A model generated the notes under the pieces. That model did no database searches. It was not told the DNA's origin and worked only from the letters and a program-made list of their open reading frames with translations. Positions 100-15,726 of a DNA stretch of 43,168 nucleotides are shown here, piece by piece. Positions within the stretch are counted from its first letter, which is position 1. Each line of letters begins with the position of its first letter. The DNA comes from a virus: IMG/VR virus record IMGVR_UViG_3300025146_000006; one strand, given 5' to 3'. The translations under genes were made by a program, and so were the position numbers.

Positions 100-176
100 C
101 CTGGATCTGCCCGCGCTGTCGGTATCAGAACGACGGGCGCGGCTGGCGCTGCTGGTTCTGCCGAGCCCATCGGTGA
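72..176 (+). CDS. 34-aa zinc-ribbon protein (RanBP2/NZF-like W-x-C-x2-C...C-x2-C)
   Basis: The translation is MNAPGLTWKPWICPRCRYQNDGRGWRCWFCRAHR. A GGGGAGGTGGGG RBS lies just upstream. The stop TGA 174-176 overlaps GTG 173 of the helicase gene (GTGA coupling). Confidence 0.6.
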   Translation: MNAPGLTWKPWICPRCRYQNDGRGWRCWFCRAHR

Positions 177-1477
177 CGCCCACCGACCCCGTGCTCACAC
201 CCCTCGGCGACAGTCTGTGGGTCGTCTGGCCGGAGCGCGGGACCCTCGAGTTCGCCCGCGTCGCCGAGCACAGCGACAGCCTCTCGGCCGAGGTCACCGT
301 GGTCAGCGTGGCGGCCGGCGAGCTGTCGTGGTCGCGGCTGAACCTCGCCAGCGCGCAGAGCCGGGCGGGGCTGGCGCGGCTGCTCGAGGAGCGGGACCCG
401 GGGCAGGACTGGCGGGCGATGCTCGACCGCTCGTGTCGGCTGGTCGCCAGGCACCTCAGGGCGGGGGAGCCGGCCGTGGCGCTCGTGCCCGCCCCGCCGC
501 CGGCCGCCCACTGGCTCGTCGAGGGCCTGGTCCCGGCCGGGCAACTCTCCGTCGTGTTCGGCGACGGGGGCGTGGGCAAGAGCTACCTCGCGCTCGCGCT
601 GGCCCTGGCCGGGCTGCTGGCGCGCCCCCTCAGCGCGCGCTGGCGGGTGGCCCCGCTTCGCCGCGTCCTCTACCTCGACTGGGAGAGCGGGCGCGACGAG
701 CAACAGGCGCGGCTCTGGCGGTTGACCCGGGGCCTCGGCTCGACGCCCGTGGACGGCGCGCTGCTCCACCGGACGATGCGGCGGCCCCTGCTCGACGATC
801 TGCCGGCGCTCCGCGCCGAGGTCGCGCGCGAGCACGTGGACCTCGTGATCGCGGACAGCCTGGCCCCCGCGTGCGGCCCCGAGCCCGAGACGGCGTCGGC
901 CGTCGTGCCCGCCCTCCTGGGTCTCCGGAGCCTCGCCGTGACCGTGCTCATCCTCGCGCACGTCAGCAAGCAGACCGCCGACGTCCGCGCCCCAGGCCGC
1001 CCCTTCGGGAGCGTGTTCGTCCAGAACCTGGCTCGGAGCACGATCGAGGCCCGGCGGAGCGAGGCCACGGGCGAGGGCGAGCCCGGGTACACGCTCACGC
1101 TCTACCACCGCAAGGCCAACGAGGGGGAGATGCTCAGGCCGTCGGCGCTCGACTTCCGCTGGACCGATCCAGGCACCCTGACGGTCCGGGCCGGGCAGGC
1201 GGAGATGGGCTGGGCGAGCCTGCCGCAACAGGTGCTCGATGCGCTTCGGACCCCGAAGACCGCCCGTCAACTGGCCGAAGAACTGGAGGTCACGCCCGCG
1301 TCTGCCAAGAAGACGCTGCAGCGCCTCGAAAAGCGGGACAACGTGATCCGGCTTTCCGGGACAGACGGCGGACGAGGCAACGAACAGCTGTGGGCGCGCA
1401 CAGATAGAAAGCGGGACATGGACGGTGCCCAACCGGGACACACCAGGGAGCCTGGCGAAGATGATCCACCGTTCTAG
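173..1477 (+). CDS. RepA/AAA_25-type RecA-fold replicative helicase or initiator with a C-terminal winged-helix domain
   Basis: 434 aa. Walker A is VVFGDGGVGKSYLALALA and Walker B-like is DLVIADSLAP, followed by VLILAHVSKQ. The C-terminus (LPQQVLDALRTPKTARQLAEELEVTPASAKKTLQRLEKRDNVIRL) looks like a MarR-like wHTH. GC3 is high. Confidence 0.8.
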   Translation: MTPTDPVLTPLGDSLWVVWPERGTLEFARVAEHSDSLSAEVTVVSVAAGELSWSRLNLASAQSRAGLARLLEERDPGQDWRAMLDRSCRLVARHLRAGEPAVALVPAPPPAAHWLVEGLVPAGQLSVVFGDGGVGKSYLALALALAGLLARPLSARWRVAPLRRVLYLDWESGRDEQQARLWRLTRGLGSTPVDGALLHRTMRRPLLDDLPALRAEVAREHVDLVIADSLAPACGPEPETASAVVPALLGLRSLAVTVLILAHVSKQTADVRAPGRPFGSVFVQNLARSTIEARRSEATGEGEPGYTLTLYHRKANEGEMLRPSALDFRWTDPGTLTVRAGQAEMGWASLPQQVLDALRTPKTARQLAEELEVTPASAKKTLQRLEKRDNVIRLSGTDGGRGNEQLWARTDRKRDMDGAQPGHTREPGEDDPPF

Positions 1478-2073: not shown

Positions 2074-2356
2074 CGGCGACGGCGAGCGCGCTTGGTCGCG
2101 GCTGCGCGGCCCGCTCGTACAACAGCTGCTCCGCGTCGCCAACCTCCCGGATTCCCTCGCGAACGAGGTCCACTACGGTCTCAAGGCCAAGCACCAGGCG
2201 ATCGACGCGCTGTTGCGCCGCGCGCTGCCTGAGACCACGCGGCTCGAGGTCACCACCCCGCGCCTGAGTGATACAGAGCTGGTCGACACGCTCGCGGTGC
2301 TCGGGCTGGTCGTGCCGGCGGCGCTGCCGGCAGCTGAGGGGGAGGGCGAGGAGTGA
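1955..2356 (+). CDS. Hypothetical helical protein with an acidic C-terminus; a small-terminase role is possible by position only
   Basis: 133 aa with very high GC3 throughout. It lies upstream of the HNH and terminase genes. I recognised no motif. Confidence 0.6.
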   Translation: MPSPLTNVAEFDRRLAQHGLEAGAPLVPALDAEALRQLADGDGERAWSRLRGPLVQQLLRVANLPDSLANEVHYGLKAKHQAIDALLRRALPETTRLEVTTPRLSDTELVDTLAVLGLVVPAALPAAEGEGEE

Positions 2357-2376
2357 CGCGGTGCGCCCGAACGAGT

Positions 2377-2392
2377 CGTAATAGCTATTACG
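2377..2392. promoter_or_regulatory. Perfect 16-bp palindrome CGTAATAGCTATTACG, a candidate operator
   Basis: It sits in an AT-richer 120-bp intergenic island between 2356 and 2478, about 50 bp upstream of a promoter-like element. Confidence 0.35.
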
Positions 2393-2442
2393 AGAAGCTG
2401 TTTCGGATCATGGCGGATGCGTTGATGAATAGCGACCATCTG

Positions 2443-2471
2443 TTGACACGAGCGCCGATGCGTGTTATCAC
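2443..2471 (+). promoter_or_regulatory. Sigma70-like promoter candidate: TTGACA, 17-nt spacer, TATCAC, ending 6 nt before the HNH ATG (a leaderless arrangement)
   Basis: TTGACA lies at 2443-2448, the spacer at 2449-2465 and TATCAC at 2466-2471, with the ATG at 2478. The -10 element lacks the conserved final T, so the call is weak. Confidence 0.3.
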
Positions 2472-2477
2472 TCACGC

Positions 2478-2945
2478 ATGCGAATCACCATTCTCCCTCG
2501 ACCGCTCCAGGTCAGGATCAGGGCGCCGAGACTCTCCGGGTGCTGGCGCTGGGCAGGATCGGTTACACCGGCAGGCTACGCGCGATTCAATGGCCGCTAC
2601 GCGCATCGCGTCGCGTGGGTGCACGTCAACGGCCAGATCCCCGAGCGCATGGTGCTCCATCACGCCTGCGGCACTCGTGAGTGCGTGCGTCCCGATCACC
2701 TCCGGCTGGTCGAGCGCGGCCCCCACATCGCCGAACACGCCGCCAGCCGACCGCGTCTCAGCCCGGAGGAACGACGAGAGCGCACCAGGCAGTCGCAACG
2801 GGCGTGGCAGGCCCGCCAACGCCTGCGCGGCGGCTGTCGGCGCTGTGTGGCCCCGGCCCTGCCAGGACGAACCTTCTGCGCCCCCCACCTTGCCGCGGAG
2901 CGCGCAGCCAAACGCCTCCGCGCTGCCGCCTCCCGCCTGCCCTGA
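2478..2945 (+). CDS. HNH endonuclease (HNH_3 type), adjacent to the terminase
   Basis: 155 aa. The motif GCWRWAGSVTPAGYARFNGRYAHRVAWVHVNGQIPERMVLHHACGTRECVRPDHL is characteristic of phage HNH_3 proteins. Confidence 0.85.
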   Translation: MRITILPRPLQVRIRAPRLSGCWRWAGSVTPAGYARFNGRYAHRVAWVHVNGQIPERMVLHHACGTRECVRPDHLRLVERGPHIAEHAASRPRLSPEERRERTRQSQRAWQARQRLRGGCRRCVAPALPGRTFCAPHLAAERAAKRLRAAASRLP

Positions 2946-3009
2946 CCGCCTCGCCTCCGCCCTCGACGCCTGCCGGCTGCACGCGGGCGGCTGGCCCTGG
3001 CGCGCCGCG

Positions 3010-3288
3010 GTGCGCCTGGCCGGCCGAGCGGCCGACGTCGCGCCGACCTGCGGCCACGCGGGCCCGGCCTGCGTGCTCTGCGGGGCGTGCCGGGCGTGCC
3101 ACGCGCGCGCGGCCGCGGCGCCGAACGGGGGCCCCATGGGCCTGGGGCGGGTGCACCGGCCGGTCCTCTCCTCCGACACACCACGTCCAGGAATCGCCCC
3201 CCCGCCCGTGGTCGCCGTCCCCGAAATCCCCCCCCTGCGGGCCGTGGCGCCTCCGGGTGCCCCGATCGCCCCCGAGGTCAGGGCCTGA
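3010..3288 (+). CDS. Cys-rich and Pro-rich hypothetical protein; start uncertain (GTG 3010, or upstream TTG 2890)
   Basis: The frame has high GC3 from about 2941 to the stop at 3286-3288, which overlaps the terL ATG (ATGA). It contains TCGHAGPACVLCGACRACH. No canonical start with an RBS was found. Confidence 0.35.
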   Translation: MRLAGRAADVAPTCGHAGPACVLCGACRACHARAAAAPNGGPMGLGRVHRPVLSSDTPRPGIAPPPVVAVPEIPPLRAVAPPGAPIAPEVRA

Positions 3289-4130
3289 TGGCCCCCCCGG
3301 CGGCGCGCGTCGCGCCCAGAGCCTCTCAGGCGGCGCCCCGCCTCACCAAGACCGAGCGCGCGGCTCTGGCGCAGCGCCTCTGGGACGGGATCTGCGCCTC
3401 GCCCTACGTGTTCCTCGGGCTCGCGAAGACCCTGGACGAGCACGCGCCGGAGGGGGAGCCGGCGGTGCGGCCCTTTCCGCTCTGCGCGGTCTGCGCGCAG
3501 GACGAGGCGGCCAACGAGCGGATCGCCCTGCGGGGGGGGCTCTCGATCTGCGCGGCGCACGGGCGGCGGCACAAGCCGTACTTCCGGGTGCTCGGGGAGG
3601 CGTGGCGGCGGGCGCCGTGGGAGTCCGAGGGGATCGTCTTGCTCGAGAAGTCGCGGCAGATGATCTGCTCGTGGTTCTTCGTCGAGCTGCTCGGGTGGCA
3701 GGTGATGGTGCGGCCGGGGACGCGCAACGCCATCCAGAGCCTGAACTACGACAAGGCGTGCGAGCTGGTCGAGCGGTTCGCGCTGAGCTACCAGGCGCTG
3801 CCGGCCGAGGCGCAGCGGTACGGGCCGCTCTCGGACAGTCCCAAGGCCCGGGCGCGGGCGATTCGGGGGAAGGTGGAGTTCCCGGAGATCCACGCGGAGC
3901 TGGTGGCGCTGCCGAACGGGCCGAACCAGACGCGGATGTACACGTTCACCTCGCTGCTGATGGACGAGTGCCAGCATTGGGAGCCGGACGAGGACTTCGA
4001 GGACAGCTACGCGGCGGGGCTGGCGACGATCAAGGGGGACGTGAACCGGACGGGGCGGCTGGTGGCGCTGTCGACGGTGCACCACGCGGGGAGCTTCCAC
4101 CATCGGCTCTGCCGGGGGCTGGCGGCATGA
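3288..4130 (+). CDS. terL: Terminase large subunit, N-terminal ATPase half only
   Basis: 280 aa. Walker-A-like motif is GIVLLEKSRQMICSW, Walker B is TSLLMDECQHW and motif III is RLVALSTV. An N-terminal CxxC...CxxH insert (PLCAVCAQDE...SICAAHGRRH) is present. The ORF stops at 4128-4130 with no nuclease motifs. Confidence 0.8.
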   Translation: MAPPAARVAPRASQAAPRLTKTERAALAQRLWDGICASPYVFLGLAKTLDEHAPEGEPAVRPFPLCAVCAQDEAANERIALRGGLSICAAHGRRHKPYFRVLGEAWRRAPWESEGIVLLEKSRQMICSWFFVELLGWQVMVRPGTRNAIQSLNYDKACELVERFALSYQALPAEAQRYGPLSDSPKARARAIRGKVEFPEIHAELVALPNGPNQTRMYTFTSLLMDECQHWEPDEDFEDSYAAGLATIKGDVNRTGRLVALSTVHHAGSFHHRLCRGLAA

Positions 4131-4606
4131 CGGCGCGGGATCGGATCGACCTGGTCCTCGTCGCCGCGACGCTGGCGGCGCTCGCGCTCTGGGGGTCCGG
4201 GCTCTACGGCCAGTGGCGCGCCGGCCGGGACGTCGCCGGGGCGCAGGCCCTGGCCGACGCCTACGCCGTCCATCTCGACCACGGCCGGAGCCACGCCGTC
4301 GAGTGGGCGGTCTGCGGCGCGCGGGCGCAGGGCGCGCGGGAGGCGAAGGACGCCGAGGCCGAGCGGGGCGCCGTGCAGTGCTGGCAGGCGGCGCGCGGGC
4401 GGGCGATGGACGAGTGGCTCCCGCAGGTCTACGGGCGCCTGCGGGCCGACTTCGGCCGGGCGGTCGCGGAGTCCTGGAAGCTCGGGGCGGACCTGTCGGA
4501 CCTCGGGACCTCGGAGCGGCGCGAGCACCAGGCGCGCCTGCTGGCGCTCGATCGGCTGCTGGGGCCGATGCGGGACGGGACGCTGCGGCGGCGGGCCGCG
4601 CGGTGA
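4127..4606 (+). CDS. N-terminally membrane-anchored helical protein, unknown function
   Basis: 159 aa. The ATG at 4127 overlaps the terL-N stop (ATGA). The TM segment is IDLVLVAATLAALALWGSGLY and the remainder is charged and helical. Confidence 0.65.
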   Translation: MTARDRIDLVLVAATLAALALWGSGLYGQWRAGRDVAGAQALADAYAVHLDHGRSHAVEWAVCGARAQGAREAKDAEAERGAVQCWQAARGRAMDEWLPQVYGRLRADFGRAVAESWKLGADLSDLGTSERREHQARLLALDRLLGPMRDGTLRRRAAR

Positions 4607-4650
4607 TCACCACGGACCAGCCGGCCGGGCCGGCGAAGAAGGAGCGCGCG

Positions 4651-5397
4651 ATGAACGAGCGGAGACTCTGGCCGAGTGTCCTGGCGGTGGCCCTGATGGC
4701 GGCGGCGGCGCTCTGGGTCGCGTGGCCGGCCGAGGCGCAGTGGGCCGAGATCACGACCAACGCCGTGAAACCGGCCGACACCGCGAAAGCGATCACGATC
4801 GGCCCGTCGGCGACCTCGGGCGTGCAGGTGACGACGGCCGGCAAGCTGAACCAGCTGGTCGCCGACACGGACGGCTGGGCGTTCATCCCGGCCTATCAGG
4901 GCTGTATCGCGAACACGATCACCGTCTCCGGCGTGCAGGGCGCGAAGACCCTCGTCGCGTCCCGGCAGGGGCTGAACCAGTGGAGCCTGCACTGGTCCTC
5001 GGGGCCCTCGCTCGCGCCGTTCAAGATCGTCTGTTCGCTCAACTCGTGGCTGCAGCGGCTCGGGGTGCAGAAGGGCTACGCGCTCAAGACCGTCTCGATC
5101 GTGCACCAGTTCTCCGCGGCCCCCGGGTCCACCTTCACGGAATGGGGGCGCCTGGCCTCCTGCACCTACGCCAACAACACCGCCATCACGTGCGGGGAGA
5201 ACCTGGTGGCGTCGCCGACGATGCCGAGCGCGTCGGACCCGGAGCCCCAGGTGACGACCGCGACGCTGACGACCGCGGCCTACATCGCGTCGCAAGTCGA
5301 TCTGAACCTCGAGTTCGGCGTCGAGATCCCGCAGGGCGGCAACGGGATCTACAACCTCTACGGCGTCTTCGTCACCTTCAACCGGCTGGATCACTAG
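4651..5397 (+). CDS. Secreted protein with a Sec signal peptide, beta-rich, unknown function
   Basis: 248 aa with a GAAGGAG RBS. The N-terminus MNERRLWPSVLAVALMAAAALWVAWPAEA/QW has n-region, h-region and AxA-type features. The sequence is rich in Thr, Ser and Ala. Confidence 0.7.
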   Translation: MNERRLWPSVLAVALMAAAALWVAWPAEAQWAEITTNAVKPADTAKAITIGPSATSGVQVTTAGKLNQLVADTDGWAFIPAYQGCIANTITVSGVQGAKTLVASRQGLNQWSLHWSSGPSLAPFKIVCSLNSWLQRLGVQKGYALKTVSIVHQFSAAPGSTFTEWGRLASCTYANNTAITCGENLVASPTMPSASDPEPQVTTATLTTAAYIASQVDLNLEFGVEIPQGGNGIYNLYGVFVTFNRLDH

Positions 5398-5405
5398 GGC
5401 GACGC

Positions 5406-6575
5406 ATGACGCGGCCGATGCAGGCACTCGGCGGCCTCGCGCTCGCGGGGCTCGCCGTCTGCCTGCCGTGGCTGACCGCGTGGTCGGCCGCGCTCTGGCT
5501 CTCCTCGTCGCGGGCGATCCTCGAAACGCCGCTGACGGCGCTCGCGGTCGCCGCCTTCGTGCTCGTCGGGGCGGCCGTCGCGATCCACGAACCCTGGCTC
5601 GGCGCCTTCGTCGCCTACGCGGGGCTGTCGCTCTTCCGCATCGGCTGGCCGGGCATGGCCGAGGCCGTGCTCCCGATCGCGCTCGGCGCGGTGACGATCG
5701 TCGCGGTCGGCGCGCTGCCCGCCCGCGCGGCGTTCGCCGGGGCCGCCGGGGCCTGGACGCTCCGGTGGCGCGGGGCGGCGCTCGGGGCCGCGGTCACGCT
5801 GCCCGCCGGGACGCTCCGGTGGCGACGCTGGGCGCTCGCCGCCCTCGTGGCCGGCGGCGTGGCGCAAACGCTCTACGCGCTCGCGCAGCTGGCCGGCCTG
5901 GACCCGCTCTGGCTCGGCTGGCGCGTCTCCCGCCGGGCGCTGCTGCTCCAGGGCACCTTCGGCCAGCACGGGCTCTACGGCGCCTATCTGGCGCTCCTCG
6001 CCCCGCTGGCTCCACTCTGGCTCGTGCCGGTCTTCCTCGTCGGCCTGCTGCTCTCCTACTCGACGGTCGCCGTGGGCGCCGCCGCGGTCGGCCTCCTCCT
6101 GCGCTGGCGCACGCGCACCTGGGGCGCCTGGGCGCTCGCCCTCGTCACGCTCGCGCTCGTCTGGTGGGCGCGTGGGGGCGTGGCGGCCGAGGCGTGGACG
6201 AATCGCCTGGACATCGCGCGCCAGGGGCTCGCGGGCTGGCTCTGGGCCTCGCCGTGGCTCGGGCTCGGCCCTGCGGCGTGGGCCTCGGTCGCCGACCCGA
6301 TGCAACTCGTTCGCGTGGCGCCGCGCGGGGCGCGCGAGATCTTCGTCCAGGCCCACAACGAGTACGTGCAGGTCGCGTTCGAGTACGGGGTGGTGGGCGT
6401 CGGGCTGCTCGCCGGCTTCTGCTGGGCGCACCGCCGGGCCCTCCAGGGCCGCTTCGGCGGGGCGCTCGTGAGCCTCGCGCTCGTGTCGCTCGCGTGGTTC
6501 CCGTTCCGCGTGGCGACGGTCGCGTGGACGGCCGTGGTGATCGTCGGGCTGGCGCTCGCGGAGGAGGCGGCGTGA
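5406..6575 (+). CDS. Wzy_C / O-antigen-ligase-like polytopic membrane protein, paralog 1
   Basis: 389 aa and hydrophobic throughout. The loop motif WLGLGPAAW...FVQAHNEYVQVAFEYGVVG matches the G-x-G...H-N-x-Y...E-x-G pattern of the WaaL/Wzy/PglL family. Confidence 0.75.
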   Translation: MTRPMQALGGLALAGLAVCLPWLTAWSAALWLSSSRAILETPLTALAVAAFVLVGAAVAIHEPWLGAFVAYAGLSLFRIGWPGMAEAVLPIALGAVTIVAVGALPARAAFAGAAGAWTLRWRGAALGAAVTLPAGTLRWRRWALAALVAGGVAQTLYALAQLAGLDPLWLGWRVSRRALLLQGTFGQHGLYGAYLALLAPLAPLWLVPVFLVGLLLSYSTVAVGAAAVGLLLRWRTRTWGAWALALVTLALVWWARGGVAAEAWTNRLDIARQGLAGWLWASPWLGLGPAAWASVADPMQLVRVAPRGAREIFVQAHNEYVQVAFEYGVVGVGLLAGFCWAHRRALQGRFGGALVSLALVSLAWFPFRVATVAWTAVVIVGLALAEEAA

Positions 6576-7447
6576 AGGGCGTGCGCGTGATTTCGCTCCA
6601 CTACAGCGCCGACGCGGAAAAGGCGGCGCCGGAGTGGAAAGAGCGCGCGAAAGTCGGGTATCCGCCGACCAAGTGGGAGCGGGAGATGGAGCTGAACGCC
6701 CACGCCGGCGCCCTGACGGCCGTCTTCCGCCTCGCCTACCGCGCGGACACGCACCTGCGCGCGCTCGAGCCCGATCCGGCCCTGCCGATGCGCCACGGCT
6801 GGGACTTCGGCAAGGGCTTTCCGGCCTGCGTGTGGTTTCAGCGCACGCGCGACAACGGCCTGCGCGTCTTCGGCTCCCTGGTCGGCGAGGCGGTGCAGCT
6901 CCGGAGCTTCGTCGAGCGCACGCTCGGCTTCACGCTCGAGCGCTTCGGGGATCTCTGGCCGAACCGGCGCGACTACTGCGACCCGGCGGGCAACCAGGAC
7001 AAGGACGACGGCCTGAAGTCCGTCGAGGTGCTCCGGAGCTTCGGCTGGAGCCCGAAATGGGTCGGCGGGCTGGTGCAGCCGGGCCTCGAGGCGCTCGAGC
7101 GGCTCATGACCCTGACGCTGCCGAGCGGCGACCCGGCGTTCCTCGTCGACCCACGGTGGAACCGGGTGCTGATCGAGGCGCTCGAGGGCCGGTACTATCG
7201 CAAGGCGTCGGGCGAGATCGCGCGCGAGCACCCCTGGATCGACGCGATGGACGCGCTCCGCTACGGTGTGATGTGCACGAAGACGCCTGACCGCCCGCGC
7301 CAACGTCCGGGGCGCCCGTTTCCGGTCAACGAGGTCTCCGGCTACGGCCTGGCGACGCGCCCGGACACGGCGGGCCACGTCGCGGGCGGCCCAGGGGCGT
7401 GGGACGAGGCGATGCGGGGCGCGGGCTACCTGGTGAACGGGCGATGA
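6572..7447 (+). CDS. terL: Terminase large subunit, C-terminal half (ATPase lid plus RNaseH-fold nuclease)
   Basis: 291 aa. The GTG at 6572 overlaps the upstream stop (GTGA), and GGAGGAGG lies 5-10 nt upstream. Nuclease acidic motifs are GWDFGKGFPACVW, YCDPAGNQDKDDG and HPWIDAMDALRYG. Confidence 0.8.
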   Translation: MKGVRVISLHYSADAEKAAPEWKERAKVGYPPTKWEREMELNAHAGALTAVFRLAYRADTHLRALEPDPALPMRHGWDFGKGFPACVWFQRTRDNGLRVFGSLVGEAVQLRSFVERTLGFTLERFGDLWPNRRDYCDPAGNQDKDDGLKSVEVLRSFGWSPKWVGGLVQPGLEALERLMTLTLPSGDPAFLVDPRWNRVLIEALEGRYYRKASGEIAREHPWIDAMDALRYGVMCTKTPDRPRQRPGRPFPVNEVSGYGLATRPDTAGHVAGGPGAWDEAMRGAGYLVNGR

Positions 7448-8514
7448 GGGCGCTCGGGCTCGCGGTCGGCCTCCTCGCGGCGCTGCTGCCCTGGACGGCG
7501 GCGGTCCGAGTGGCGCCGGTCGCCACGCCGGGCGCCGCGATCCTCGAGACGCCCCTCTACGTCTTCGTGGCCGCGCTCCTGGCCCTCGGGGGCGCCGCCC
7601 TGACGCGCGGGGACCGCTGGCTCGGCCTCCTCGTGCTCTGGGGGGCGCTCGGGGCGGTCGCGGCGCGCGACTGGATCGCGCTGGCGACCGCGCTGTGGCT
7701 CGCGGGCGGGGCGGCCGTCCTGGTGGCGGCGCGGGGCGCGGTCGAGCGTGGCGCGGGGCCGATCCTGCGCGTCCTGCTCGTCGCCACGGCCGCCGGGGAG
7801 GCGCTCTATGCCCTCGGGCAGGCGTTCCGGTGGGATCCCCTCTGGTGGGGCTCGGAGGCGCCGCCCTACGTCGTCTGGCACGGCACGCTCGGCAATCCGA
7901 AGTACCTCGGGGCGTTCCTGGCCCTGCTGGCGCCCCTGGCCCCGCTGGCCGTCCTGCCGATCCTGCTCGTCGGCGTCGTCCTGAGCCGCTCCTGGCTCGC
8001 CGCGGCGGCCGTGATCGTCGGGCTGGCGCTCCGGCCGTCCGGATCGCGCCGGGCGCGGGCCGGCGCGCTCGCGCTCGGCGTCCTGGGGGCGCTCGGCGCC
8101 GTCTGGGCGCGCGGGTGGAGCCCGGACAGCGCGCTGAACCGGCTGGCGGTCTGGCGGCTCGCGTGGGACGACCTCTGGGCCGTCCCCGTGACGCTCCTGA
8201 CGGGCTACGGGCCCGGGGCCTGGCCCCAGGCGATCACGGCGCGCCAGATCGTCGCCGCAGGCCAGGGCTGGCCCCCGGAACTCTTTGCCGCCGCCCACAG
8301 CGACCTCGTGCGGCTCGGGTTCGAGGGCGGGGCGCTCGCGCTCGCGGTCCTCGGGCTCTGGATCCTCGCGCACCGAGCGGCCTGGTGGCGCTCGCCCTGG
8401 CGCGGGGCGGCCGCGGCCCTCGCCGTGCTGGTGGTGGGGCTGCACCCGATGCATCTGGCCTCGATCGCCGTGCCGGCCTGCGTGGTGCTCGGCGCGGCCA
8501 CGGCGCGCACCTGA
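7444..8514 (+). CDS. Wzy_C / O-antigen-ligase-like polytopic membrane protein, paralog 2
   Basis: 356 aa. The ATG at 7444 overlaps the terL-C stop (ATGA). It shares AILETPL, LYAL.Q...DPLW, LALLAPLAPL, G.GP.AW and AH...V..GFE.G with the 5406-6575 product. Confidence 0.75.
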   Translation: MRALGLAVGLLAALLPWTAAVRVAPVATPGAAILETPLYVFVAALLALGGAALTRGDRWLGLLVLWGALGAVAARDWIALATALWLAGGAAVLVAARGAVERGAGPILRVLLVATAAGEALYALGQAFRWDPLWWGSEAPPYVVWHGTLGNPKYLGAFLALLAPLAPLAVLPILLVGVVLSRSWLAAAAVIVGLALRPSGSRRARAGALALGVLGALGAVWARGWSPDSALNRLAVWRLAWDDLWAVPVTLLTGYGPGAWPQAITARQIVAAGQGWPPELFAAAHSDLVRLGFEGGALALAVLGLWILAHRAAWWRSPWRGAAAALAVLVVGLHPMHLASIAVPACVVLGAATART

Positions 8515-8536: not shown

Positions 8537-8908
8537 ATGAGGCGATGGACGGCGATTCTGGGGCTCCTGGCGGCGGTGGCGGCGCCGGCCGTGGTCGTGG
8601 CGGAGGACGTGGTCCTCCCGGGCGGCGTGCTGATGCAGATCTTCTCCCCGTCGCTGACCCCGGCGGCGCATGCAGCGGGCGGCCCGCTGAACACCGAGAC
8701 CTCCTTCGAGGAGACCTACACCGTGAGCGGCCTGCTCCCGGGCGGGGCGGTCTTCGTCTCGCCGCCGTCCCAGACGGCCGCCTGCCCGATGAGCGGGGCG
8801 CGCGTGTCGGCGCTCAACACGCTGGCGCTGACCTACACGAAGCAGACGACGGCGGCGTGCACGCCCGCGAGCGGCACCTACCGCGTGACGAACATCCTGA
8901 AGCCATGA
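8537..8908 (+). CDS. Small secreted protein with a signal peptide
   Basis: 123 aa with a CGGAGGA RBS. The N-terminus is MRRWTAILGLLAAVAAPAVVVA/ED. The mature part is beta-rich and has three Cys. Confidence 0.65.
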   Translation: MRRWTAILGLLAAVAAPAVVVAEDVVLPGGVLMQIFSPSLTPAAHAAGGPLNTETSFEETYTVSGLLPGGAVFVSPPSQTAACPMSGARVSALNTLALTYTKQTTAACTPASGTYRVTNILKP

Positions 8909-9087
8909 CGCGCGGGCTCGATCTCCTGCTCGCGTTCCTGCTCGGCGCCGCCCTGGCTGGCGCGGGGGCGGTCTGGGCCGACGCCCCGCGCTGGGGGGCG
9001 CAGTCCGGGCTCGTGATGTGGACGCACGCGACGAGCGGACCCGTGGAGGCGAGTACGACGAACCCCGTGCCCGTCCAGGGCTACTGA
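8905..9087 (+). CDS. 60-aa secreted peptide precursor whose mature part resembles the N-terminus of the next protein
   Basis: MTRGLDLLLAFLLGAALAGAGAVWA/DAPRWGAQSGLVMWTHATSGPVEASTTNPVPVQGY. It has ATGA overlaps at both ends. Confidence 0.55.
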   Translation: MTRGLDLLLAFLLGAALAGAGAVWADAPRWGAQSGLVMWTHATSGPVEASTTNPVPVQGY

Positions 9088-10439
9088 TGCGCCGGCGTCT
9101 CGCGCTCCGCGGTCTCGCGGTCCTGCTGATCCTCGGTCTGGGGGGGCTCGCCACCGCCCGGGCCGACGCCCCGCGCTGGTCCGCCCTCTCGACGCTGCTC
9201 ATGTGGACCAAGGCGGATCCGACGGGGCCGACCGAGGTGACGGCGGCGGACCCGCTGCCGGTCACCATCAGCGGGGACGCGACCCTCGACACGCTGACGA
9301 TCGACGAGAAGATCCTCCTCCCCGCCGGCACGACGGCGGCGCCGAGTCTTCAGTGGCCCGCGACGGGGCTGACGCAGATCTCCACCGCCGTCCTCGGCCT
9401 GGTGAATGGTGAGGTCTCGCAGGAATTTCGTGTGTACGGCACGGCGACGGGAGGCGAGTATCTCGCGCTTCAGGGCGCCGCGGCCTCCCAGACGGTGCGG
9501 TCGTCGGTGGGCAATCTCAACCTCGGCTATGCGACGGCGACCCCTCTGGTCGTGTCGACGACGGGCACTATCTACGTCGGCGAGGTCGGCAACGACAACA
9601 CGAACGGCACGGGCAATCCCGACGGCCGACTGCAAATCATGGTCGACACGAACGCGGTCGTCAACCCATTCAACATTCAGAATTTCCGCTCCACGGCCGG
9701 GGCGGGCATCGGGATGTCGTTCGGGCTCGGCGCGACGGACGACCTCGTCTATCCCTACTACGTCCTCCGCCTCACCCACACGAACCAATGGACCTCGACG
9801 GCCAGCTCCCGCAAGGGCATCATGCAGATCGGGGTGCCCAACGGGGCCAACCCGGCGTATTACCTTGCGCTCGACAGCGAGCAGGCGATGGTCAACGCCA
9901 CCGCCGACCTCTGGCTCGATGCGCCGAAGGTCACGGCGGGCTCGGGAACGGGCGTCACGGTCAATGCCCCGGGCTCCGCCCGCTCCGTCGTCTACAAGGT
10001 CACCGTCCTCTCCACCAACTGCGTCGCCGCCGCGACGACGTGCGACCTCACCATCGCCACGCTCCCCGCCAAGGCGTTCCTCAAGGCCGTCATCGCGGAC
10101 CTGACGACGACCTACGCCTGCACCGCCGTCTGCACGACCGCGACGCTCTCGGGCACGCTCGGCACGAGCGCGGGCGGCACGCAACTGCTGGCCTCGATGG
10201 ACCTCGACGCCGCGGCCGCGCAGTTCGGCGACGCGGATGCGGAACTCGGGGCCACCATGAACGCGGCCGCCCGGAGCGCCAACGGCGCGCTGTTCAACGG
10301 CGTGCTGATGTCGTGGTCGGGCACGACGACGGTGACCTACCGGATCACGAGCGGCACCGGCAACCTCGGCGACGGCGCGGCGACGAATCTGAGTCAGGGC
10401 ACCATCGTCTTTTACTTGGTCACGGAGGTCTTCCCGTAG
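9087..10439 (+). CDS. Large secreted protein with a signal peptide; beta-rich and Thr/Ala/Gly-rich; possibly a fibre or adhesin
   Basis: 450 aa. The N-terminus is MRRRLALRGLAVLLILGLGGLATARA/DAPRWSALSTLLMWTKADPTGPTEVTAADPLPV. It lies immediately upstream of the portal gene. Confidence 0.7.
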   Translation: MRRRLALRGLAVLLILGLGGLATARADAPRWSALSTLLMWTKADPTGPTEVTAADPLPVTISGDATLDTLTIDEKILLPAGTTAAPSLQWPATGLTQISTAVLGLVNGEVSQEFRVYGTATGGEYLALQGAAASQTVRSSVGNLNLGYATATPLVVSTTGTIYVGEVGNDNTNGTGNPDGRLQIMVDTNAVVNPFNIQNFRSTAGAGIGMSFGLGATDDLVYPYYVLRLTHTNQWTSTASSRKGIMQIGVPNGANPAYYLALDSEQAMVNATADLWLDAPKVTAGSGTGVTVNAPGSARSVVYKVTVLSTNCVAAATTCDLTIATLPAKAFLKAVIADLTTTYACTAVCTTATLSGTLGTSAGGTQLLASMDLDAAAAQFGDADAELGATMNAAARSANGALFNGVLMSWSGTTTVTYRITSGTGNLGDGAATNLSQGTIVFYLVTEVFP

Positions 10440-12532
10440 TGGAGATCCGCCGCGCGAGCCCGATCCCGCTCGACAGCCCCAAGGCGTTTTACACGAACCA
10501 CGCCAGGGACGCCGAGACGGCCCGGCGCGCCGTGAAGCTCGCGCTGCCGATGCTGACGCACGTCCGCCGGAACCGCCAGACGATCGACAAGAAGGCCCTG
10601 CGCCGCTACAACCAGTGGGCGCTCGTCACGGACGACCGCTTCTACGTCGGGCGCGCGAACACCTACATCCCCGCCGTGCGCCGGGGCGTCGAGCGCCTCG
10701 TGAGCAGCACGATCCGCGAGACGTTCCCCTCGGACGAGTGGTGGGACCTGCAGGCGACCGCCCCGGAGTTCGAGAAGAACCTCGACGGCCAGCGGGCCCT
10801 CCTGCGCCAGCAGCTCCGCCAGATGGCCGTCAAGCGCCTGGCCCGGCCGACGTACCGGCAGGCCTTCATTTGCGGCCTCACCCCGGTGCGGGTCGGGTGG
10901 AAGACGGTCGAGCGCACGGAGAGCGCGATCGGCCCGGGTCCGGACGGGAAGGGCTTCGGCGTCACGCAGCGCCGCCGCGTGCTCTACAACGGTCCCGAGT
11001 TCGAGCCCGTGGACTTCTTCAGCTTCGGCGTCTACCCGATGACGGGGCTGCGCCTGGAGGACGCGCTGCTCGTGTACGAGGACGCCGTGGTGAGCCTCGA
11101 CGAGTTGCAGGCCGACCGTGACAACTACACGAACCTCGCGCGGGCGAAGTCCGCGGCGGGCAGCGGGACCAGCGGGAGCGAGGCCCTGCAGCAGCGCCAG
11201 CAGCGCCTCCGCCAGCTCGGGATCACCGAGGACGAGCTGACCGACGGCCAGTTCGCCTTCATCACGCACTGCTACCTGTCGGCCTTCGATCTCAAGGACC
11301 GCTTCCGCCTCGGGCCCGAACCCGTGATCCTGACGCTCGCGTGGGAGGAGGTGCCGATCCGCCTGCAGCGCAACGCCTACGGCCGGGCGCCCTATCTCGA
11401 GGTGCGCGACAGCGAGATGATCGGGGAGCACTGGCCGCACGCGCGCACGGAGGCGACCGATCGGCTGCAGATCCACCTGAACGACGTGTCGAATCAGGAC
11501 GCGGACGCCTCGAGCTTCGCCAACAACCCGATCGTGCTGGTGGACCCCAACGTCGTCGAGGACTACCAGGCGATCGCCATCTACCCGGGCGCCAAGGTGC
11601 CGGCGCCGAAAGACGCCGTGAGCTTCGACCGCCCGCCCGAGGCGGCGTACAGCCAGAAGGACAAGCTCGCCTTCCTGCACCAGCTCATCAACGAGAACCT
11701 GGGCTCGCCGACCGCCGCGAGCGGCAGCCCGGCCGCCTCCGCGCAGCCCCGCGGCGCCCGGACCTTCGGCGGGATGCAGATGCTCCAGATGCTCGCCGGC
11801 TCCGAAGCCAAGGAGTTCGTCGAGTTCCAGGAGGAGAACTTCTGGGAGCCGCTCCTGGGGTGGATGGCGAAGATGAACGCCCTGTTCCTCTCCGACGAGC
11901 AGACGCTCCGCATGGCGGGCAGCCGGGGCGCGGCCATCGTGGTGAACCGCGAGACCTTCGCGGGCGACTACGCCTACGAGTGGCTCGGCACCTCGACGAT
12001 GCAGAATCAGACCGTGCGCTCGGCGCAGATGCTGGTCTTCATGAACGTGCTGCGGGGGCTCCAGCTCCCGCCCGGGCAGTCGGTCAACGTCGCGTACATC
12101 CTCAAGACGTGGTGGCGCTCGCAGGGCCTGAAGGACGCCGACCGCGTGATCCTCGACGCGACGCCCGAGTCCGTGCCGGCCGACCTCGAGCAGCAGCTCG
12201 TGGCGATGGGGCGCGCGATTCAGGTCTCCCCGCAGGACAACGACGCCGAGCACATCGCGAGCCACGCCCGCGCCCGCGGCGCGCTGCCGCCCGACAGCCC
12301 CGAGCACCAGACGCTGCTCCAGCACGAGCAGGCGCACGCCACGCAGCTGCTCGTCAAGCAGCAGGCGGCGCTCCTCCAGCAGTCTGCGGCGATGCCCGGG
12401 GGCGGCACGAACGGGGGGCCCGCCCCGGCGGGGGCGAAGGCCGGCATGAAGCCGCGGATGGGTGCGGACTCCGGCATGGGACCGGCGCGCGCGATGCTGG
12501 CCGCCCCCGGGGGCGCGCCGGGAGGCCCCTGA
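10439..12532 (+). CDS. Portal protein (podovirus, T7 gp8-like head-tail connector)
   Basis: About 697 aa. The GTG at 10439 has GGAGG upstream. It contains YIPAVRRGVERLVSSTIRETFPSDEWWD. Size, position and a Gln/Ala/Gly-rich C-terminal tail fit a portal. Confidence 0.75.
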   Translation: MEIRRASPIPLDSPKAFYTNHARDAETARRAVKLALPMLTHVRRNRQTIDKKALRRYNQWALVTDDRFYVGRANTYIPAVRRGVERLVSSTIRETFPSDEWWDLQATAPEFEKNLDGQRALLRQQLRQMAVKRLARPTYRQAFICGLTPVRVGWKTVERTESAIGPGPDGKGFGVTQRRRVLYNGPEFEPVDFFSFGVYPMTGLRLEDALLVYEDAVVSLDELQADRDNYTNLARAKSAAGSGTSGSEALQQRQQRLRQLGITEDELTDGQFAFITHCYLSAFDLKDRFRLGPEPVILTLAWEEVPIRLQRNAYGRAPYLEVRDSEMIGEHWPHARTEATDRLQIHLNDVSNQDADASSFANNPIVLVDPNVVEDYQAIAIYPGAKVPAPKDAVSFDRPPEAAYSQKDKLAFLHQLINENLGSPTAASGSPAASAQPRGARTFGGMQMLQMLAGSEAKEFVEFQEENFWEPLLGWMAKMNALFLSDEQTLRMAGSRGAAIVVNRETFAGDYAYEWLGTSTMQNQTVRSAQMLVFMNVLRGLQLPPGQSVNVAYILKTWWRSQGLKDADRVILDATPESVPADLEQQLVAMGRAIQVSPQDNDAEHIASHARARGALPPDSPEHQTLLQHEQAHATQLLVKQQAALLQQSAAMPGGGTNGGPAPAGAKAGMKPRMGADSGMGPARAMLAAPGGAPGGP

Positions 12533-14370: not shown

Positions 14371-15726
14371 ATGATGTGGCTCACGCGGATGATCGCGGCA
14401 GTCTGGTTCTGGGTCGGCGAGCGCCTGCCGCGCTCGCCGGCGACGCGGATTGGCGCCTTTGTGCTGCTCCCGATCGCGGGCGGCGCGGACACGACCTCGA
14501 CCACCCTCACCAACGACATGCTGTCGGCCTACATCGCGGACAAGACCCTGATGGTGGCCGAGAAGCAGGTCAAGATGGCGCAGCTCGGCGACCCCGCCCG
14601 GCTGCCGTCGAAAATGTCCACCACGTTCCAGTACACGACCTATGACCGGCTGGCACTCCCGCAGTCGACGTTGACCGAGGGCGTCACGCCGGCCTCGACG
14701 CAGATGTCGATCTCCACCGTCTCGGCGACCGTCGAGCAGTGGGGGCAGGTCGTCGTCATCACCGATGTCGCCAACCTCACGATCAAGCACAACGTCTTTC
14801 AGAAGGCCGTCGCGCTGCTGGCCCTGGCCGCGGCCGAGACGCGGGACCGCGAGGTGCAGGAAGTCCTCCTGGCCGGGACCAACGTGCAGTACGCCGGCAC
14901 CAGCAACACGACGCGGGGCAACCTCGCCGCGGGCGACGTGATCACCACGGGCACGATCCGCACCACGGTCGCCAACCTCCGGAACAACGGGGCGCGGCCG
15001 TACTCGGGCGATCTGCTCGTCGGCGTCCTCGACCCCTCGGTCGAGCAGGACCTGACCTCCGACGCGACCTTCGTCGCGGCGGCGCAGTACAGCAAACTCC
15101 AGCTCCTGATGAACGGGGAAATCGGCACCTGGATGGGCGTCCGATGGATCCGCTCCAACTTCCTCTACACCTTCACCGGCGCGGCGTCGGCCACGGCGGC
15201 GGACGTGGCGGCGGCCGGCTCGATCGTCGCCAACACGACCGTCTACACGGTCACGACGCGCGTGGACACCACCACCGGGTTCGAGAACGGGGGCACGCAG
15301 GAGGCGACGACGACGGTCGCCAACGACGGCAACGACACGCACGCGGTCCGGGTGACGATGCCCTCGACCACGGGCTACACCTACAACGTCTACGCCGGCA
15401 CGGTGTCGGGCACGCTCTACCAGGTGTCCACGGGCAACGCGGCCAGCGCGACCTACGACATCACCACGGTGCCGACCTCCGGCACGCAGCACCCCGCGAT
15501 CGCGGCGACGGGCGTCACCACGCACGTCGTCTGGGTCCTCGGGAAGGAAGCCTTCGCGGTCGTGACGCTCGACGGCATGTCGCTGCAGACCTACGCCGTG
15601 CGGGCCTCCGCGTCGGACTCGGACCCGCTGGCGCAGCGGCACAAGGCGGGCTGGAAGCTCATGTTCAAGAGCGTGATCTGCAACCAGAACTACCTGCGCC
15701 GCGTGGAGTGCACGAGCAACTATTAG
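14371..15726 (+). CDS. Major capsid protein (HK97 fold, N4 gp56-like) with an N-terminal hydrophobic extension and an internal insertion
   Basis: 451 aa with an AGGAG RBS. It contains ...MSTTFQYTTYDRLALPQSTLTEGVTPAS...EQWGQVVVITD..., then GTWMGVRWIRSN, and ends ...GWKLMFKSVICNQNY. Confidence 0.75.
   Translation: MMWLTRMIAAVWFWVGERLPRSPATRIGAFVLLPIAGGADTTSTTLTNDMLSAYIADKTLMVAEKQVKMAQLGDPARLPSKMSTTFQYTTYDRLALPQSTLTEGVTPASTQMSISTVSATVEQWGQVVVITDVANLTIKHNVFQKAVALLALAAAETRDREVQEVLLAGTNVQYAGTSNTTRGNLAAGDVITTGTIRTTVANLRNNGARPYSGDLLVGVLDPSVEQDLTSDATFVAAAQYSKLQLLMNGEIGTWMGVRWIRSNFLYTFTGAASATAADVAAAGSIVANTTVYTVTTRVDTTTGFENGGTQEATTTVANDGNDTHAVRVTMPSTTGYTYNVYAGTVSGTLYQVSTGNAASATYDITTVPTSGTQHPAIAATGVTTHVVWVLGKEAFAVVTLDGMSLQTYAVRASASDSDPLAQRHKAGWKLMFKSVICNQNYLRRVECTSNY

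Follow-up and report, generated by a model that had tools for sequence, protein, structure and literature searches.

We report here that the large terminase (TerL) of an uncultured phage is encoded by two separate genes, one for the ATPase core (terL-N) and one for the lid and nuclease (terL-C), placing the two TerL activities on separate polypeptides. The genome (IMG/VR record IMGVR_UViG_3300025146_000006, hereafter the window, meaning the whole 43,168-nucleotide stretch analysed) is a ~43-kb, high-GC, podovirus-like phage genome in which the two ORFs lie 2441 nt apart; every close relative likewise has the halves as two distinct ORFs. Judging from the homologues recovered, the split is a family trait, common in metagenomes and not peculiar to this genome. 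TerL is the textbook single-chain packaging motor, and to our knowledge every TerL solved or characterised so far is one polypeptide. We found no published account of the two-gene arrangement. We consider it probable that terL was split in a shared ancestor, that the junction has since served as a landing site for other genes, and that the two chains rebuild the protomer; binding of the chains is inferred, with neither an experiment nor a model of the complex behind it.

Genome setting

The window genome contains a complete structural gene set (Table 1). The split TerL is its sole terminase and lies in the packaging module adjoining the portal gene, whose product is 53-56% identical to the portals of three relatives (L001, L009 and L014). 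The original prediction of two terL ORFs, with no second intact terL visible, was borne out: both ORFs are present on the + strand at the positions given, no other terL was detected in the window, and GC3 values of 0.9-1.0 track the exact frames of terL-N, genes B, C and D, and terL-C, supporting both halves. A free-standing HNH_3 endonuclease gene is found ~340 nt upstream of the ATPase half, i.e. outside the split. It is missing in L033-L036 (83%-identical relatives), where window 2345-2942 is represented by only ~117 nt; by this comparison, the gene is a lineage-specific insertion.

Table 1 Position of the features described in this study
Feature	Position (nt)	Strand	Basis
HNH_3 endonuclease gene, free-standing	2478..2945	+	Pfam HNH_3 1.3e-14; PHROG HNH/endonuclease families down to 1e-22
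terL-N, large-terminase ATPase core	3288..4130	+	GC3 frame, homologues, profile, AF2/Foldseek
terL-N zinc-ribbon-like insert CxxC...CxxH	~3483-3572	+	
terL-N deviant Walker A K121-S-R	3648-3656	+	
terL-N Walker B D226-E227	3963-3968	+	
terL-N motif III S262	4071-4073	+	
Left junction repeat GGCGGCATGA (terL-N stop over start of gene B)	4121..4130	+	direct reading
Gene B, 159 aa, one N-terminal hydrophobic helix	4127..4606	+	GC3 frame; translation
Gene C, secreted-looking protein; start GTG 4603 (over gene B stop) or ATG 4651	4603..5397	+	GC3 frame
Gene D, polytopic membrane protein, weakly Wzy_C (O-antigen ligase/polymerase)-like	5406..6575	+	paralogy, homologues
Shine-Dalgarno-like GGAGGAGG, 4 nt before GTG start of terL-C	6560..6567	+	direct reading
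Right junction repeat GGCGGCGTGA (gene D stop over terL-C start)	6566..6575	+	direct reading
terL-C, last core beta-strand, lid and RNase H-like nuclease	6572..7447	+	PHROG, homologues, AF2/Foldseek
terL-C nuclease D78	6803-6805	+	
terL-C nuclease D137	6980-6982	+	
terL-C nuclease D224	7241-7243	+	
Gene F, second Wzy-like polytopic membrane protein	7444..8514	+	paralogy with gene D; relatives
Portal protein, end of packaging module	10439..12532	+	Pfam SU10_portal 7e-7; PHROG portal 3e-13
Major head protein	14371-15726		

Identification of the two halves

The product of terL-N is a T4 gp17-like terminase ATPase core (ASCE); its packaging activity is inferred. The terL-N profile matches the T4/RB49 gp17 ATPase (2e-7), and Foldseek analysis of the AF2 model of the chain alone (pLDDT 87.9, pTM 0.86) returned the T4 gp17 ATPase as best match (1.9e-8), followed by the P74-26, T7, HK97, Sf6 and D6E terminases. 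The Walker A, Walker B and motif III residues listed in Table 1 are invariant across 21 homologues. The chain ends after the short helix behind motif III, and all standalone homologues (20/20) end at the same place. No nuclease part was identified in terL-N, profile and model matching terminase ATPase domains only, in agreement with the initial description of this ORF as ATPase alone.

The second half, in which RNase H nuclease motifs had been predicted, carries a terminase nuclease of the RNase H-like, acidic-triad type, whose cleavage activity is likewise inferred. It matches phrog_2, terminase large subunit (4.3e-7), and its AF2 model (pLDDT 85.6) matched the D6E TerL (7.6e-10), the P22 nuclease domain (6e-8), HK97 and the RB49 nuclease. 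D78 and D137 do not vary among 37 sequences, nor does D224 within the close clade. Of the 48 homologues found, ~29 are standalone, and these begin where terL-C does. Its N-terminal segment (MKGVRVISLHYSADAEK...) is equivalent to the last core beta-strand of the ATPase domain; two lid-like helices and then the nuclease come next, and profile positions 15-102 align to residues 186-273 of D6E TerL. The first 10 residues are strongly conserved (HYsADP), and in the stand-alone model they show no secondary structure and reduced confidence. This combination is consistent with docking onto terL-N, for which there are no binding data.

The break lies inside the ATPase domain

The split had been placed near the ATPase-lid/nuclease boundary. 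Profile and structure mapping moves it: the break follows the helix after motif III and precedes the last core beta-strand and the lid, and on the crystal structures of T4 gp17 and P74-26 TerL it falls within the ATPase domain. In the solved T4 gp17 and P74-26 structures, this strand and the lid belong to the ATPase fold. Contiguous relatives (P0021, P0046, P0033, P0039, P0028, P0035 and P0030) read unbroken from ...STPNGKFNIFYDLWSQDNGF into TKSRIHYSDHPDRD... at this point, without extra residues.

The position of the break bears on whether the two chains form a stable protomer at all. terL-N alone might translocate DNA, as does the nuclease-less gp16 of phi29, with terL-C a separate nuclease acting only at packaging initiation and termination. 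phi29 gp16 resembles terL-N in being a packaging ATPase that has no nuclease domain, but phi29 lacks any terminase nuclease, whereas the window phage has one that carries part of the ATPase domain. The terL-N model folds confidently by itself, the halves lie anywhere from 0 to 3.2 kb apart with unrelated genes in between, and in the window they are not directly translationally coupled, all of which would suit such a division of labour. However, terL-C retains the highly conserved last core strand and lid of the ATPase domain, which a free nuclease would have no cause to keep, and the sheet of terL-N is incomplete without that strand. We therefore judge two independently acting chains to be unlikely and prefer the rebuilt protomer.

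The split is shared by many relatives

All relatives are metagenomic and come without virion or infection data. A search for contiguous and split forms of terL, proposed with the original prediction, recovered both. In ~85-89 of the best 150 cluster representatives (clustered at 50% identity), the chain ends no more than a few residues from one profile position (~88 at the exact point), and another 55-58 run on as TerLs of ~540 aa. The identical break point is kept in dozens of diverged lineages. A rough NJ tree did not cleanly separate split from contiguous forms, so that one ancient fission event has not been demonstrated.

With no isolate and no functional data at hand, the halves could in principle be pseudogene remnants of a decaying prophage or products of a chimeric assembly, and P0001, from a close relative, is a frameshifted ORF call. 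A misjoin at 4130 or 6572, which would have refuted the split, is not supported: four independent metagenome assemblies (~83% DNA identity) remain collinear with window 3338-7370, a span that includes both junctions. The catalytic residues are intact, dN/dS is 0.19 for terL-N and 0.20 for terL-C, GC3 in frame exceeds 0.9, the structural gene set is complete and the same break recurs in the diverged representatives counted above. A broken gene is already disfavoured by these data and is scarcely credible. They support instead a stable two-piece TerL whose halves are, by their substitution rates, under equal purifying selection (dN/dS ~0.2).

Junctions and inserted genes

In the window, terL-N and gene B overlap by ATGA (4127-4130), and gene D and terL-C by GTGA (6572-6575). 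An RTGA stop/start overlap closes the ATPase half in every relative examined. In two relatives, L004 and L018, the halves themselves overlap by 4 nt with no intervening sequence; GAGGTGGCGGCGTGA of L004 is the same sequence as the right repeat of the window and there forms the direct overlap of ATPase half and nuclease half. Junction anatomy and variable inserts were observed in these two and in L001, L009, L012, L014 and L017. Depending on lineage, the junction holds nothing, a small ORF, an HNH homing-endonuclease gene, a GroES-like cassette or three envelope-type genes, the distance between halves ranging from 0 to 3.2 kb and being filled with unrelated genes. Every insert retains RTGA overlaps at both ends.

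In the window, three coding genes (2.44 kb) occupy the junction. Gene B has no match in Pfam, PHROGs or NCBIfam and shows 75% amino acid identity to its L034 counterpart (dN/dS 0.49); dN/dS for gene C is 0.33. Homologues of gene C follow the nuclease half in L012 (40% identity) and L009 (32%) and precede it in L014 (33%); those of gene D lie downstream of the nuclease half in L009 and L012. Gene D is a paralogue of gene F (38% identity over 248 aa, E = 2e-13), which occupies the usual place of its gene family in relatives, after the nuclease half. The description of gene D as Wzy_C-like rests on its homologues, which score below threshold (a match graded weak in L033-L035; 4.2e-7 for a distant homologue in L004, with 30.3 bits against a cutoff of 31.7), but the gene D product has no Pfam match at E <= 1 and so does not meet the PF04932 gathering score. 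Since relatives carry none, one or several genes at the junction, with the simplest ones overlapping directly, the three-gene block is, on this comparison, a secondary insertion into an already split terL. Thus the 2.4-kb distance noted originally is real, but the spacing is secondary, homologues of two of the three genes lying downstream of the nuclease half in relatives.

For the ribosome binding site attributed to the nuclease half, direct reading gave the Shine-Dalgarno-like GGAGGAGG. Chaining of the three genes by 4-nt overlaps holds at both outer junctions, and between genes B and C (GTGA) only if gene C starts at GTG 4603, the start used in relatives. It fails as a claim for every junction because genes C and D are separated by an 8-nt gap. 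As three genes and this uncoupled junction separate the halves, stoichiometric co-translation is not guaranteed in the window.

No evidence for splicing or recoding

Interrupted terL genes are usually explained by introns, split inteins or short inserts, and one full-length TerL might still be made here via RNA splicing, protein trans-splicing, ribosomal frameshifting or bypassing. In favour of this, L001 has an HNH endonuclease gene at the split (phrog_3377, 2.7e-39); the window, L004, L018, L009 and L012 have no homing endonuclease gene there. Rfam searches for group I/II introns at the gathering threshold gave 0 matches in the window and seven loci, and in E-value mode nucleotides 3900-6800 gave chance matches to eukaryotic RNAs only. 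An intron-interrupted terL is ruled out by this null result together with the 4-nt overlap in L004 and L018. Inteins, too, are excluded because the halves overlap by ATGA/GTGA in the simplest relatives. No Pfam Hint domain was matched on terL-N or terL-C, and the halves abut without extra residues. Because contiguous relatives cross the break without additional residues, there is no room for split intein halves, which require ~90 + 35 aa (PMC2677866). Recoding by frameshift or bypass, of the type suggested by the 10-nt inserts in phiHau3 terL (PMC10732093), finds no support: the halves are 2441 nt apart, a bypass of 2.4 kb with three selected genes is not possible, and reading of the L004 overlap revealed no slippery heptamer. 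A full-length product, already disfavoured, is thus very improbable. With the shared break and the similar dN/dS of both halves, these results uphold the original view that neither an intron, an intein nor a recent disruption is involved.

Comparison with known systems

The window halves share the folds, and by inference the two activities, of T4 gp17-type TerLs (also P74-26, D6E, P22, HK97 and Sf6). The ATPase is of the ASCE type, with a variant Walker A, the DE pair of Walker B and motif III; the nuclease is RNase H-like with an acidic triad; and the portal gene is adjacent. The difference is that the window chain is cut after the motif III helix, with lid and nuclease on a second protein.

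Several phage enzymes are split at endonuclease insertion sites, namely Aeh1 NrdA (mobE), T4 topoisomerase gp39/gp60 (mobA) and the phage 25/44RR DNA polymerase 43A/43B (Edgell et al. 2010, PMC2988022). As with the split TerL, the cut falls within a conserved domain of an essential enzyme and two chains are translated separately, although reassembly of TerL is inferred. In one relative, L001, a free-standing HNH endonuclease gene occupies the cut, and L009 and L012 resemble the 44RR-type variants with only a short spacer. In contrast to these cases, which involve one or two phages, the split TerL concerns a different enzyme, has a basal state without insert, holds three non-nuclease genes in the window and is spread over a very large, diverse clade. 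No terminase example of such fission was found in the literature.

Self-splicing group I introns with homing endonuclease genes interrupt terL in Lelliottia phage phD2B and K1E (PMC4246154) and in Vibrio phage ICP1 (PMC10448857). These genes, like the window terL, were annotated as two ORFs with other coding sequence between them, but their transcripts are spliced to give one protein, whereas the split TerL has no detectable intron and its ORFs overlap directly in some relatives. A 'fractured' gp17-like terminase in metagenomic phage DNA is also encoded in two pieces; a free-standing endonuclease is bordered on each side by a split-intein half (Dassa et al. 2009, PMC2677866). There, the N- and C-intein halves ligate the protein; the split TerL has no such residues.

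Proposed origin and assembly

We propose that terL was already split in an ancestor common to many uncultured phages. The basal state would be two ORFs one frame apart and overlapping by ATGA/GTGA, which a single-base indel could produce; the overlap would provide termination-reinitiation coupling, aiding co-production of both chains. The junction may later have turned into a permissive landing site for varied genes. The N-terminal strand of terL-C is predicted to dock into the open beta-sheet of terL-N by strand complementation, restoring a normal TerL protomer as a heterodimer, five of which would form the DNA-cutting and DNA-pumping motor at the portal; none of these steps has been shown. 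Two-chain assembly of the motor is inferred because hundreds of uncultured relatives have this cut without intron or intein. Reassembly into an active enzyme is an inference drawn only from the conservation of both halves.

It is also conceivable, though we give it little weight, that the split is a functional design in which core and lid-plus-nuclease are exchangeable subunits, the nuclease-lid chain joining the ATPase ring only at initiation and at headful/cos cutting, and the junction is a protected expression slot for accessory genes. If true, this would be a physical switch holding the nuclease off during translocation.

Conclusions

How ATP hydrolysis is transferred from the Rossmann core via the lid to the nuclease/DNA-gripping domain, and how the TerL nuclease is silenced during translocation, are both debated. 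In this large natural family, core and lid-plus-nuclease are on different chains, which offers a two-component system for research on the packaging motor; its chains could be mutated and labelled one at a time, titrated and mixed. As for annotation, 'terminase' ORFs of half length at this break are real genes and not frameshift errors, and TerL-based phage detection and phylogeny that expect one protein of ~500 aa will mis-handle the split-TerL clade. In evolutionary terms, a fission point in an essential late gene may have become a recurrent insertion site, open to accessory genes as well as homing endonucleases.

Gene layout of the terminase region

At a G+C content of about 70%, the window gives raw ORF lists crowded with spurious frames, and gene calls were therefore resolved with a third-position GC plot. 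From 3.3 to 12.5 kb, GC3 was 0.9-1.0 in one plus-strand frame at a time, and the high-GC3 frame changed exactly at the gene boundaries, from the ATPase half of the large terminase (A, terL-N) to the portal gene. The nuclease half (E, terL-C) is a separate ORF, with three genes (B, C and D) between the two halves. The original prediction of a TerL carried by two ORFs was confirmed by these coordinates and GC3 frames, and by the profiles and folds of both products. It had also described a continuous chain of 4-nt overlaps, which was found at A/B (ATGA) and D/E (GTGA), exists at B/C only if C starts at GTG 4603, the start seen in relatives, and is broken at C/D by an 8-nt gap. The B-C-D insert is flanked by GGCGGCATGA and GGCGGCGTGA, and the right-hand copy is nearly identical to the direct A/E overlap in the metagenomic relative L004, GAGGTGGCGGCGTGA.

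Features of the terminase region in the window and in relative loci
Sequence	Feature	Coordinates	Strand	Remark
Window	Helicase-like gene	173-1477		434 aa only
Window	HNH_3 endonuclease gene	2478-2945		free-standing, just upstream of A
Window	A, ATPase half	3288-4130	+	GC3 frame
Window	Zinc-ribbon-like insert in A	~3483-3572		residues 66-95
Window	Left flank of insert, GGCGGCATGA	4121-4130		
Window	A/B overlap	4127-4130		ATGA
Window	B, inserted gene	4127-4606	+	GC3 frame
Window	C, inserted gene	4603/4651-5397	+	GC3 frame
Window	D, inserted gene	5406-6575	+	GC3 frame
Window	GGAGGAGG, ahead of E start	6560-6567		
Window	Right flank of insert, GGCGGCGTGA	6566-6575		
Window	D/E overlap	6572-6575		GTGA
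Window	E, nuclease half	6572-7447	+	GC3 frame
Window	F, paralogue of D	7444-8514	+	GC3 frame
Window	G	8537-8908	+	GC3 frame
Window	H	8905-9087	+	GC3 frame; 60 aa
Window	I	9087-10439	+	GC3 frame; 450 aa
Window	Portal gene	10439-12532	+	GC3 frame
L001	Prok-JAB gene	5413-5820		directly upstream of ATPase half
L004	Prok-JAB gene	869-1276		directly upstream of ATPase half
L012	Prok-JAB gene	6468-6914		directly upstream of ATPase half
L009	Prok-JAB gene	6271-6678		51-aa ORF between it and ATPase half
L017	GroES-like co-chaperonin gene	4116-4400		between terminase halves; Pfam Cpn10; phrog_3188, 1.3e-14
L012	~65-aa small ORF	7807-8004		at terL split junction
L014	~65-aa small ORF	3232-3432		at terL split junction
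L001	~65-aa small ORF	5210-5416		elsewhere
L030	Region with nuclease-half insertion	4399-7293		insertion ~330 aa, between profile positions 103 and 103
L033	DnaB-type helicase gene	5605-8205		866 aa
L034	DnaB-type helicase gene	2134-4734		866 aa

Identity of the two halves

Searched alone, A gave no match in Pfam, PHROGs, NCBIfam or PDB sequences, and was recognisable only through a family profile and its predicted fold. The profile of A with 20 homologues matched the T4/RB49 gp17 ATPase domain (2e-7). In Foldseek the AlphaFold model of A (pLDDT 87.9) was closest to the T4 gp17 ATPase (1.9e-8), with the P74-26, T7, HK97, Sf6 and D6E terminases next. The sole match of E alone was to phrog_2, 'terminase large subunit' (PHROGs, 4.3e-7, profile positions 439-607 of 807), and as a single sequence it found chance matches only in PDB. 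Its model (pLDDT 85.6) matched D6E TerL (7.6e-10), the P22 nuclease domain (6e-8, TM 0.72 on the target), HK97 TerL and the RB49 nuclease. A joined A+E query recovered ATPase-half relatives only, among the matches listed. Residues invariant in the A homologues (K121-S-R, D226-E227 and S262) and conserved in those of E (D78, D137 and D224) fit the predicted assignments as ATPase and nuclease, respectively. The K-S-R motif is a deviant Walker A, its lysine placed first as in lambda gpA. An intact second terL, which would have contradicted this reading, is not present in the window: the two family HMMs match only A and E, and the remaining large ORFs are head, replication or unknown proteins.

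A also contains a zinc-ribbon-like CxxC...CxxH(xxxH) insert (FPLCAVCA...SICAAHGRRH) between the N-terminal helices and the nucleotide-binding core, modelled as a small beta-hairpin. Within the close clade C66, C69, H91 and H95 hardly vary; the insert is missing from distant split relatives and from contiguous relatives, in which TerL is a single ORF. Its function is unknown, possibly DNA binding.

Position of the cut

Seven contiguous relatives (439-506 aa, some with Pfam terminase domains in a precomputed table) align continuously through the break position. At this point the contiguous protein P0021 reads VLASTPNGKFNIFYDLWSQDNGF followed directly by TKSRIHYSDHPDRDATW, and the window has VALSTVHHAGSFHHRLCRGLAA and a stop codon, with E beginning MKGVRVISLHYSADAEKAAPEW. 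The contiguous-relative profile aligned to the T4 gp17 structure as far as TTPNGLNHFYDIWTAAVEGK, and to the crystallised P74-26 ATPase-domain construct through STPKGLNWFYEFF, HPDFESFHAASWDVWPERREWY and EFRQEYGAEF. These alignments place the break within the ATPase domain as structurally defined, and not, as had been proposed, at the lid/nuclease boundary. The short helix following motif III lies ahead of the cut, and both the last core beta-strand and the lid subdomain lie beyond it; the corresponding gp17 position would be at about residue 305. E thus has some 60 residues of ATPase-domain origin at its N-terminus. Profile positions 15-102 of E align to D6E TerL residues 186-273. In the stand-alone model the first 10 residues of E have no secondary structure and lower confidence, as would be expected if the sheet of a partner is needed.

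The split in relatives

As a query, E retrieved about 29 standalone proteins (270-310 aa) that share a start point, and A retrieved 20 (196-336 aa) that all share an end point. An exhaustive profile search gave 3115 matches; of the 150 top-ranking representatives of clusters at 50% identity, 85-89 terminate no more than a few residues from the profile end (median length 234 aa) and 55-58 run on as TerLs of about 540 aa. Both contiguous and split terL therefore occur among the relatives, with a common break point, and the arrangement, real as it is in the window, is widely distributed rather than an isolated case. In a neighbour-joining tree of 144 ATPase cores, 34 split/contiguous changes were counted against 44 for shuffled labels, a signal too weak to decide between one and many fissions.

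The content of the junction varies. L004 and L018, the latter from a distant clade, have nothing between the halves except a GTGA/ATGA overlap; L009 and L012 have one ORF of 57 and 65 aa, respectively; L001 has a 147-aa HNH endonuclease (phrog_3377, 2.7e-39); L017 has a GroES-like gene plus three ORFs in 1.9 kb; and L014 has six ORFs, one of them homologous to C, in 3.2 kb. In the junctions read (window, L001, L004, L009, L012, L015 and L018), the ATPase half ends in a stop that overlaps the start of the following gene, and the nuclease half (M-K-G-v-d-V...) begins with a start that overlaps the stop before it; L015, with a 47-nt overlap between the called ORFs, is alone in departing from this ATGA or GTGA (RTGA) pattern. 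On these comparisons the split is a family trait and the 2.44-kb insert of the window is secondary, so that of the predicted arrangement the three intervening genes stand and the spacing loses its importance. In L009 and L012 the homologues of C and D follow the nuclease half, a usual position that F, the paralogue of D, occupies in the window; the B-C-D block therefore resembles a cassette from the variable terminase-portal region, inferred to have been copied or moved into the junction.

The ~65-aa small ORFs of L012, L014 and L001 are alike by eye (RFEYE.DG....V.....D.GET...), which suggests a small mobile ORF family. Some split relatives have a large in-frame insertion inside the nuclease half, as in L030; another such protein, P0044, has a Pfam Hint_2 domain. 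The insertions of L030 and P0044 are probably inteins inside an already split terL.

Exclusion of alternative explanations

Four assemblies made independently from separate samples, one of them a groundwater metagenome, speak against an assembly artefact or a decaying gene: they share the A-B-C-D-E order and align to window positions 3338-7370 in a single collinear stretch that spans both junctions (about 83-84% DNA identity). Between the window and one of them, dN/dS was 0.19 for A, 0.20 for E, 0.49 for B, 0.33 for C and 0.42 for D, values indicating purifying selection on all five genes and the same rate for A and E.

Interrupted terL genes have been explained by group I introns (PMC4246154, PMC10448857), a split intein (PMC2677866) and proposed bypassing (PMC10732093). 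No Rfam match was found at gathering thresholds in the window or seven relatives, a permissive Rfam scan of 3900-6800 gave chance matches only, and L004 and L018 lack any intervening sequence; an intron was rejected. Known split inteins require about 90 + 35 residues (PMC2677866), and A and E abut without spare residues relative to contiguous relatives. Frameshifting or bypassing is impossible across 2.4 kb of selected genes, and no slippery heptamer is visible in the L004 overlap. With the shared break point and dN/dS near 0.2, these results bear out the earlier view that the split is not an intron, an intein or a recent disruption. Integration of the three genes as a satellite or island in terL (compare PMC10111431) was rejected because the insert has no integrase-like gene in Pfam, PHROGs or NCBIfam searches.

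Neighbouring genes

Relatives 83% identical to the window lack the HNH_3 gene and have about 117 nt in place of about 600 nt; the gene seems to be a recent insertion of the homing-endonuclease type adjoining terL. D and F, which flank E, are paralogous polytopic membrane proteins (38% identity). Relatives carry one copy of this gene type between terminase and portal, with weak Wzy_C similarity; the description of D as a Wzy_C-like membrane protein is sound for the membrane part and weak for Wzy_C. It is unusual, and unexplained, for a packaging module to conserve a membrane glycan-polymerase/ligase-like gene. The signal-like N-terminal region of I recurs in H (56% identity over 34 aa), which appears to be a partial tandem duplicate of I. 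In four relatives the ATPase half is closely preceded by a Prok-JAB (JAB/MPN metalloprotease-like) gene, of which no counterpart was seen in the same place in the window; a recognisable small terminase was found in none of these four loci. The DnaB-type helicases of L033 and L034 carry an intein and a LAGLIDADG endonuclease domain.

Proposed mechanism and significance

A and E are two separately initiated ORFs, both conserved and selected, and A lacks the last strand and lid of its domain, which E carries. The two chains would form one protomer by beta-strand complementation, and five such protomers would make up the motor. The RTGA overlaps would give termination-reinitiation coupling, aiding co-production. 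Because the halves are one frame apart, the fission could stem from a single-base indel. That the ATPase core instead works alone, recruiting the nuclease-lid chain only for cutting, seems to us improbable; it is not excluded, and would be the more interesting possibility.

The two-piece TerL is supported, with corrections to the cut position, the role of the insert, the distribution and the Wzy_C assignment; it is a gp17-type TerL in every tested respect except for the single polypeptide. No relative was found in a scan of GTDB species genomes, so the host remains unknown, and no close relative exists among 50,697 GenBank phage records, where the L017 ATPase half matched only contiguous T4-like gp17 genes (about 30% identity). 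The clade is known only from metagenomes. The arrangement has its closest precedents in phage enzymes that are divided at a homing-endonuclease site and whose two chains assemble, namely Aeh1 NrdA, T4 topoisomerase and the phage 25/44RR DNA polymerase (PMC2988022). The original prediction knew of no such arrangement as a described norm for tailed phages, and no intron- and intein-less two-gene TerL was found in the full-text literature, with most subscription journals outside its scope, so that the absence is not proof. For the process behind it, the fission of a gene at a permissive site, there are precedents. For specialists in packaging motors the surprise is that the ASCE core is separable from the lid in a large natural clade, and the split TerL offers a direct experimental handle on the motor.
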